IMG/VR virus record: IMGVR_UViG_2695420649_000009
Length of the DNA stretch: 6,798 nt
Strand: one strand, 5' to 3'
Source of the DNA: a virus
Lineage: Duplodnaviria; Heunggongvirae; Uroviricota; Caudoviricetes
Made by a program: the position numbers. This document shows positions 6,001 through 6,798 of this stretch, piece by piece. Each line of letters begins with the position of its first letter. The first letter of the stretch is position 1.

Positions 6001-6798
6001 CTGCGTGAGCTATTAACTGCTCTCTGGTAAAAGTCGTCATGCCGTAGCCCCTTCTTGATATTTTTCAAACCAGAACACAACCGGCTCTGCTTCCAGCGAT
6101 GCCAGCGCAATCCGTGCCAGTTCCATTTGTTCACCACGGGTAAGCCCGTTTTCAAGCGGGTTTTTAATGAACAATTCAATACGTTCTTTGGTAATAGTGG
6201 TCATGTGTTACTCCTTAACCCGCAGTGCTTTCAACTGATGAGGGGAACAAAATCTTTTCATCAAACCCTGCATTCATATCATGAACAGCAACACACCAAT
6301 CCATCGACGAACGATTATCAAGAGCCTCCATGATTTCATCCATGCGGCGTAGGTCATACAGGTAAATGCTTTTATCGCCAATGGTGTAAAAGCCAATTTT
6401 TTTCGGTGATGGATGAGGTGTACTGGCAATAGCGGACACTACCATTTGTTCTTTTTTTAAGCAGCCATCTGATGATATTTTTCCCTGAAGGCTGCCGGGG
6501 AGATATTCCCCAGACGAGAGTGACGACGCTGACGATTGTAGAAAATCTCAATGTATTCCCGTATTACTGAGATGGCTTCATCCCGGTTATTAAAACGATA
6601 GTGGCTCAGGCTCTCATTTTTCAGCGTTCCCCAGAAGCTTTCCATCGGAGCGTTGTCGTAACAGTTACCTTTACGCGACATTGATGTTTTCAGACCAGAC
6701 TGCTCCTGTATGACCCGGTAATCGTATGCGCAGTACTGTGAACCTCGATCAGAGTGGTGGATTAGCCCGGCAGGTGGGCGCTGGCTCCTGAGCGCCAT

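Follow-up and report, generated by a model that had tools for sequence, protein, structure and literature searches.

A fixed junction between IS600 and a truncated prophage gene in Shigella sonnei carries a chimeric open reading frame, very probably a by-product of prophage decay

We analyzed a stretch of 6,798 nucleotides (nt) of viral DNA from the IMG/VR record IMGVR_UViG_2695420649_000009 (Caudoviricetes), referred to below as the window, whose source is a degraded prophage adjoining the ompW gene in Shigella sonnei. At one end of the window, the right end of the insertion sequence (IS) IS600 is joined to the 3' remnant of an early prophage gene for a protein of 87 amino acids (aa), and an ATG located inside the IS600 terminus opens a chimeric open reading frame (ORF) that runs across the junction into the remnant. 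This junction is fixed in S. sonnei, and its product is already present in the databases, where it has not been recognised as a chimera. Very probably the junction is an accidental scar of IS-driven prophage decay: nothing in the sequence points to a working fusion gene, and the chimeric ORF looks like an ordinary product of a decaying genome.

The sequence at positions 6414-6798 is 98.7-99.7% identical to thousands of Escherichia coli loci annotated as 'IS3-like element IS600 family transposase', and the element can be assigned to IS600 (IS3 family, IS3 group). It contains the final 113 codons of the transposase gene orfB (6457-6798; stop codon TAA at 6459-6457), in which the domains rve, rve_2 and rve_3 were found, and the right inverted repeat (IRR), which finishes with ...GCCAGTACACCTCA at 6414. 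A full IS600 copy in the S. sonnei locus L003 yields a 385-aa product with the domains HTH_Tnp_1 and rve; a 'programmed frameshift' is annotated on the copy of E. coli GE3 (locus L002), and the frameshift site lies outside the window. The exact end of IS600, ...ACACCTCA, was fixed from two other copies with clean 3-bp target duplications: the copy of E. coli GE3, which runs from TGAGGTAGCC to GTACACCTCA with ccc on both sides, and a second copy in locus L003, with GGA on both sides. The termini of IS600 are of the TG...CA type (left, TGAGGTAGCC...; right, ...GTACACCTCA). The last IS base in the window is A6414, and the flank begins with T6413-C-C-A-T-C-A-C-C-G, so that the junction on the minus strand reads CACCTCA, the end of the IS, followed directly by TCCATCACC.

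Homology to the host prophage begins at 6413/6412, and the segment 6037-6413 is 98.7% identical over its full length to Escherichia phage vB_EcoS-689R5, in which the gene has 87 codons (MATLTKKERAWLNELQDVLDRC-PSPKK...). An initial annotation of the window had described an IS end truncating a gene and had proposed a comparison with the intact gene in IS-free homologs. The gene is uninterrupted, with 87 codons, in phage ON470583 and in E. coli 100416, the remnant in the window corresponds to residues 23-87, and the truncating element is IS600. Between positions 6215 and 6413 there are no nucleotide differences from the prophage of E. coli 100416 (locus L013). The same truncation is seen with the protein family profile phrog_1714, which covers residues 1-87 of the intact protein, is matched by the chimera at positions 21-87 (E = 5e-37) and by a displaced 5' part of the gene, described below, at positions 1-24; the chimera is thus a truncated member of the family, its match falling short of the full-length profile. 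Sequence searches with the intact 87-aa protein identified no Pfam family and no PDB relative. The truncated protein, which lacks the first 22 of the 87 residues, is probably non-functional. Some E. coli variants of the 87-aa gene (P0002, P0011 and P0015) have alternative N-termini such as MNYRTFLIAAHHRKKIGF...; these resemble a translation of the normal 5' region in a different frame and thus suggest indels in the vicinity, possibly at a run of seven A (CCGAAAAAAATTGG).

The chimeric ORF appears in the ORF listing of the window as a minus-strand frame of 76 codons at 6215..6445 with an ATG start and the translation MVVSAIASTPHPSPKK...STAG (in a longer excerpt, MVVSAIASTPHPSPKKIGFYTIGDK...SSVESTAG). 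It consists of ten IS600 codons, a junction codon CAT (His), in which CA comes from IS600 and T from the host, and 65 host codons; the tryptic peptide that spans the junction is MVVSAIASTPHPSPK. On the minus strand, the end of the transposase (...HQMAA) and its TAA are followed by 11 nt (AAAAAGAACAA), the ATG at 6445-6443, the chimeric frame and its stop codon TAA at 6217-6215. The frame had been reported as open across the IS boundary to an in-frame ATG, and the remnant as stopping just before a gene for a 55-aa protein whose Shine-Dalgarno (SD) sequence overlaps the stop; both observations hold, as this SD sequence (AAGGAG at 6216-6211) serves the 55-aa gene starting with the ATG at 6204. 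An exact copy of the 76-aa product occurs in 795 index blocks and on 832 contigs, under the names 'hypothetical protein [Shigella sonnei]', 'Prophage protein ... Q3Z0Y9_SHISS' and 'MULTISPECIES ... [Shigella]'. Coordinates of these and neighboring features are collected in Table 1.

Table 1. Features at and around the IS600-prophage junction. Positions are those of the window; duplex, pairing energy with the 3' end of the 16S rRNA.
Feature	Position	Strand	Remarks
Right-hand 385 nt of IS600 (IS3 family)	6414..6798	-	98.7-99.7% identity to annotated IS600 copies
Start ATG of the chimeric ORF	6443..6445	-	inside the IS600 right terminus, 11 nt past the orfB stop; preceding sequence AAAAAAAGAACAA
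TTGCCA, -35-like hexamer in the IRR	6424..6429	-	10 nt from the tip; usual site of the -35 box of IS3-family junction promoters (PMC12095673)
Chimeric IS600-host ORF, 76 codons	6215..6445	-	database entry Q3Z0Y9; 74-aa form with GTG start, WP_005152689.1
3' remnant of the 87-aa early prophage gene, codons 23-87 and stop	6215..6413	-	phrog_1714, function unknown; profile positions 21-87 of 87
TCC, one copy of the putative 3-bp target duplication	6411..6413	-	other copy ends the displaced 5' fragment, L007:6963-6965
TAAGGAG, remnant stop TAA (6217-6215) overlapping the SD sequence AAGGAG (6216-6211) of the 55-aa gene	6211..6217	-	duplex -8.7 kcal/mol
55-aa gene, intact	6037..6204	-	EaA-like or DUF551, depending on the source; phrog_3323; 1 nt off the E. 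coli reference
114-aa gene	5696..6040	-	phrog_660; start overlaps the stop of the 55-aa gene (ATGA)
27-codon hydrophobic ORF	5616..5699	-	start overlaps the stop of the 114-aa gene (ATGA); matching small gene annotated in phage ON470583
hok/sok type I toxin-antitoxin locus	5163..5574	-	own regulatory RNA region; 70-codon mok-like ORF, 51-aa Hok
Second IS600 copy, right end, inverted	1..51	+	L003:16398-17661; target duplication GGA, simple insertion
Start of the 55-aa gene			duplex -8.7 kcal/mol
Start of the 114-aa gene			duplex -7.1 kcal/mol
Start of hok			duplex -8.5 kcal/mol
Start of the DUF968 gene			duplex -10.7 kcal/mol
Start of the Q gene			duplex -8.7 kcal/mol
Start of rusA			duplex -3.7 kcal/mol

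The junction between IS600 and the remnant was found in all chromosomal loci fetched (10 of 10). The segment 5690-6798 is base-identical in eight of them, while the ninth differs by one base and the tenth by an indel, both inside IS600; the junction is thus fixed in S. sonnei. None of the complete genomes of E. coli has the junction, since no match there covers at least 80% of positions 6100-6798, and no intermediate preceding the rearrangement described below was found among them; nor was the exact junction found in contigs representing one genome per species, where Shigella evidently has no separate entry. The existence of other N-terminal variants in E. coli (P0002, P0004, P0015) might be taken to mean that the junction is a natural mosaic variant, or else an artefact of assembly or annotation. 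However, the same junction occurs in ten independently assembled chromosomes, the upstream sequence is IS600 to its last base, and a matching 5' fragment of the gene carrying TCC is present in the same genomes; the shared junction and this fragment refute such an explanation, the probability of which we consider negligible.

The history of the junction was reconstructed using as a reference the intact prophage at the same site in E. coli 100416 (L013, NZ_CM128593.1). Its leftward part after ompW contains int, xis, exo, ydfD, dicB, ... racR; rightward there follow a cro-like gene with a helix-turn-helix (HTH), a YdaT-like gene, a replication gene with an HTH, DUF977, a 70-aa gene, DUF4014, the 87-aa, 55-aa and 114-aa genes and hokD, and then ... 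DUF968, rusA, Q, a 65-aa gene, a methylase gene, the tRNA genes, a nanS-like gene and lysis genes. In S. sonnei, IS600 is flanked on the left by ...CCCTTTAATTTT, directly followed by the IS bases TGAGGT, within the remnant of a DUF977/Ren-like gene on the opposite strand. The triplets beside the present IS600 differ (TTT on the left, TCC on the right), and hence there is no target duplication around it. About 3 kb leftward, on the opposite strand (L007:7030-6963), lie the 68 nt with which the 87-aa gene begins; they end with ...GATCGCTGTCC (...GCTGTCC). Since TCC is present on both gene halves and only once in the uninterrupted gene of E. coli 100416, which reads GATCGCTGTCCATCACCG, it would be the original target duplication of IS600, now split and lying about 3 kb apart. 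The displaced 5' fragment runs straight into internal sequence of a lambda-type integrase gene, the 3' end of which abuts ompW. Being in frame with the 3' third of the integrase, the fragment forms a second chimeric ORF of 128 codons (L007:6644-7030, minus strand), which is called as a gene in some annotations.

Compared with the reference, 8,053 bp are missing from the S. sonnei locus (L013:7948-16000), from the 5' part of the integrase to the 5' part of DUF977: the lost segment contained the integrase 5' part, xis, exo, dicB, the racR repressor, the early rightward promoter region, the cro-like and ydaT-like genes, replication genes and the 5' part of DUF977. A further 1,028 bp, comprising the 3' part of DUF977, the 70-aa gene, DUF4014 and the 5' part of the 87-aa gene, are inverted, and one of the breakpoints is the exact left end of IS600. 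When the inversion is undone and IS1, IS600 and one TCC are removed, the resulting 1,426 nt align to E. coli genomes without a break, at 97.8% identity and 100% coverage, and in 399 E. coli genomes at least 80% of this reconstructed ancestor is covered. The IS1 copy, of 768 bp, is part of the inverted block (about L007:7539-8306), with the DUF977 remnant on one side and the 70-aa gene on the other, and is flanked by an imperfect 9-bp repeat, CAGCACTGT and CGGCACTGT. In two other S. sonnei loci the surroundings differ: in L008 the sequence further left contains Mu-like genes, and L011 has a different flank directly left of IS600, which indicates that IS-mediated rearrangement continues among strains.

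Taken together, these data show the following events. IS600 entered the 87-aa early gene of a lambdoid prophage beside ompW, with immunity of the Rac type and a late region resembling that of Stx phages, and would have duplicated TCC. A later rearrangement with a breakpoint exactly at the left IS end inverted 1,028 bp of sequence just upstream and removed 8,053 bp from the locus, and IS1 came still later, into the inverted piece. The insertion chanced on the open outward frame of IS600 bearing an ATG and thereby produced the chimeric ORF. The removal of the immunity and early-promoter region from the locus explains why the ompW prophage is dead.

Three pathways of the rearrangement were considered. 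If two inverted IS600 copies had undergone homologous recombination and one of them had then been lost, a precise removal of an IS would have been needed, which is unlikely. A second pathway starts with an inversion of the sequence from the integrase breakpoint to the left IS end and continues with a deletion next to the IS; it predicts an intermediate in which the 5' part of the integrase stands beside the left end of IS600, with CCCTAGATGA directly followed by TGAGGTAGCC. Finally, a swap of strands using a surrogate end would yield both changes in one step. The integrase breakpoint (L013:7936-7947, L007:6962-6973) ends with ...GATGACACCACA, the final part of which, ...ACACCACA, matches the IS600 terminus ACACCTCA at seven of eight positions; this likeness, about 4e-4 per position, was seen post hoc, and several comparisons were possible. 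Together with the breakpoint at the left IS end, it hints, suggestively only, that the IS600 transposase may have used a surrogate end. That the inversion and the deletion were a single transposase event, with the integrase sequence as the surrogate end and the strands swapped at the IS boundary, that is, a natural surrogate-end inversion-deletion of an IS3-family element, we regard as improbable.

We also asked how often an insertion of IS600 may be expected to create such an ORF. At the right end of IS600, the last 120 nt are free of stop codons in two of the three frames that read outward, and in one of these an ATG occurs 32 nt from the tip. Fusions of this kind are therefore expected by chance: an intragenic insertion of IS600 in the same orientation as the gene has a one-in-three chance to produce one, about one in six when orientation is counted. 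The second IS600 end provides a comparison, as the same ATG (window 20-22) opens 21 codons only. This second copy is missing at its site in two of the ten S. sonnei chromosomes (L004, L009). Where present, the two right ends of IS600 face each other over a 6.36-kb Q-rusA-DUF968-hok segment in a layout resembling a composite transposon.

The start codon of the chimeric ORF has no SD sequence, judged by the energy of the duplex with the anti-SD sequence. The 20 nt preceding the ATG at 6445 pair with the 3' end of the 16S rRNA at -1.5 kcal/mol, and those preceding the GTG at 6439 at -0.9 kcal/mol, while the strand background has a mean of -4.3 kcal/mol and reaches -1.0 kcal/mol or better at 91% of positions; the duplex at the ATG is weaker than at about 90% of positions on the minus strand. 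In five of six neighboring starts the energy is between -7.1 and -10.7 kcal/mol (Table 1). In addition, the ATG region is part of a small predicted hairpin. With neither an SD sequence nor an unpaired start, the chimeric ORF would be translated barely or not at all. Hence the fusion peptide proposed in the initial annotation is borne out in its composition (IS codons, the split His codon and 65 host codons), but its production is doubtful.

In the reference prophage, the sole correctly oriented promoter-like site ahead of hok is TTGGCA-18-TAATAT in the intergenic region between racR and the cro-like gene (L013:14153-14182), about 2.8 kb upstream. This site agrees with the earlier proposal of a native operon promoter upstream of the insertion, but the promoter has not merely been separated from its genes by the IS: it was in the missing 8-kb segment and thus is gone from upstream. 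Everything immediately left of IS600 in S. sonnei points away from the element. The 55-aa and 114-aa genes would therefore be left without their native promoter.

This loss makes it conceivable that the end of IS600 serves as a mobile signal for expression, driving the remnant and the 55-aa and 114-aa genes, and that the fusion peptide is made. Outward and hybrid promoters are known to arise from the ends of IS3-family elements (PMC12095673), the left end of IS600 contains the sole consensus promoter in the right orientation (TTAACG-17-TAGAAT), with no predicted terminator between it and the 55-aa gene, whose strong SD sequence would serve any transcript, and the ATG of the chimeric ORF follows the orfB stop closely enough for reinitiation to be conceivable. 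Yet the details of the right end argue against such a role. The hexamers at spacers 15-19 from the -35-like TTGCCA of the IRR (CACCGA, ACCGAA, CCGAAA, CGAAAA and GAAAAA) match TATAAT at one to three of six positions and none has both A2 and T6; with no -10 box at a usable spacing in the flank, no hybrid promoter is formed. Consensus scans of the last 385 nt of IS600 yielded nothing above chance, a scan of the minus strand at 5200-6798 requiring nine of twelve matches found no sites, and a relaxed scan of 6150-6798 requiring eight of twelve found five sites, compared to 5.0 +/- 2.5 in shuffled sequences. The weak duplex at the ATG (-1.5 against a mean of -4.3 kcal/mol) and the meaningless 21-codon ORF opened by the same ATG at the other IS600 end also speak against an expression signal. 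Over the 715 nt of the remnant and the 55-aa and 114-aa genes there is a single difference from the E. coli prophage, and these sequences are too young to be informative about selection. We consider this explanation rather unlikely, and the dependence of the operon on outward transcription from the IS, as initially suggested, finds no support in the sequence.

A weak read-through from the promoter of IS600 itself into the 55-aa and 114-aa genes is plausible, as no terminator-like site was predicted on the relevant strand inside IS600 or in the remnant; the fold of 6190-6480 showed neither unusual structure (z = -0.13) nor a terminator. Transposase promoters of the IS3 family are weak, and IS RNA past orfA is mostly translated only after the frameshift, so that Rho-dependent polarity should cut the read-through. 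At most a weak transcript from the left end of IS600, mostly lost to such polarity, would then reach the two genes.

A cryptic promoter inside the remnant (6215-6413) could instead drive the 55-aa and 114-aa genes, making the IS irrelevant to their expression. There are weak candidates on the minus strand with eight of twelve matches each, ATGACC-16-AATCAT with a TG extension (6357-6330) and TGGATG-17-GATAAT (6342-6314). However, the number of matches is that expected from the shuffled sequences and none of them passes the nine-of-twelve threshold; moreover, in intact prophages these genes belong to an early operon whose genes are closely spaced and all point the same way, and nothing at this place indicates an internal promoter. 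Such a promoter seems even less probable to us than an expression signal in the IS600 end.

Several points weigh against the interpretation of the junction as a silent scar. Low-level reinitiation at the ATG, 11 nt past the stop and in an A-rich context, by ribosomes ending orfB is conceivable, and there is a smaller possibility that in this way the fusion peptide is made in every S. sonnei. The statements that the ORF is not translated and that the operon is weakly transcribed derive from scans for consensus motifs, and such scans overlook promoters of non-canonical type as well as initiation that does not need an SD sequence; outward promoters, which simple rules can miss, are estimated to exist in about a quarter of IS3-family elements (PMC12095673). 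As regards the history, the data fix the breakpoints rather than the order and number of the rearrangement steps, and as the analysis covered 20 kb per genome, the 8-kb segment may survive elsewhere in the chromosome.

Downstream of the 55-aa and 114-aa genes, Hok was identified by PF01848 (HOK_GEF, E = 3e-23) and sok by Rfam RF01794, with 112 bits against a gathering score of 59. A strong intrinsic terminator at 5180-5163 (a 7-bp stem with five GC pairs and a T run) closes the hok/sok locus, which we infer to be autonomous; a transcript coming from the IS junction would end there unless antitermination occurs. In the ORF of the Q-like antiterminator (2309-3235, minus strand), 42 masked positions (N at 2374-2415) give X residues in the translation. 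Farther along, the segment 230-745 (minus strand) contains three tRNA genes at 496-745, with the anticodons CAT (Met here, Ile in the E. coli annotation), Arg-TCG and Arg-TCT, and a match to Rfam STnc100 at 230-419; the second IS600 abuts this tRNA region. The same layout of tRNA genes and STnc100 is found upstream of stx in Stx phages. There is no stx gene within the window.

Overall, the protein Q3Z0Y9/WP_005152689.1, present in hundreds of S. sonnei genomes, is a chimera of IS600 and prophage sequence, for which the appropriate annotation is a pseudogene remnant. Its biological weight is small, this being one more IS-made pseudogene in a genome with hundreds of IS copies. The split TCC provides a clean, datable marker of an inversion associated with an IS end and of an 8-kb deletion, and the inward-facing IS600 ends around Q-rusA-hok form a substrate for further inversion, which is relevant to assembly and structural-variant calling in S. 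sonnei.

We found no description of this particular junction, and the databases list the ORF as a hypothetical protein only; no report of an outward promoter of IS600 was found in the literature either, and IS600 does not feature in the main text of the IS3-family reporter study (PMC12095673). In the mobile and hybrid promoters of the IS3 family (for example IS3, IS2, IS150 and IS911, as reviewed in PMC12095673), a -35 box in the IRR is paired with a -10 box in the flank; the IS600 end described here shares with them a -35-like hexamer in the IRR, TTGCCA, and faces co-directional genes that have lost their own promoter, but has no -10-like hexamer at the needed distance. Of the 87-aa phrog_1714 protein, the first 22 residues are replaced in the chimera by 11 IS-encoded ones. 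The closest relative of the locus, the ompW prophage of E. coli 100416, has the same site and gene order and a near-identical sequence from DUF977 through the 87-aa, 55-aa and 114-aa genes, hokD, DUF968, rusA, Q and the methylase gene to the tRNA genes, and similar integrases are found beside ompW in O55:H7 strains; the S. sonnei copy differs from it by the loss of the segment from the integrase 5' part through the DUF977 5' part, by the inverted 1-kb block and by the presence of IS600 (one or two copies) and IS1. Massive expansion of IS elements, including IS600, and IS-driven gene loss have been described in S. sonnei (PMC7373316), and the mechanism, an IS insertion followed by a rearrangement associated with the IS end in a decaying Shigella prophage, is well known. 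With the IS600 insertions that create pseudogenes in Shigella, the junction shares the IS600 sequence, the TG...CA ends, the 3-bp duplication (TCC, as reconstructed), the truncation of a gene and the later IS-associated rearrangement; it differs from the usual ones in that the duplication is split over about 3 kb and in that an inversion and an 8-kb deletion have a breakpoint at the left end of the IS.

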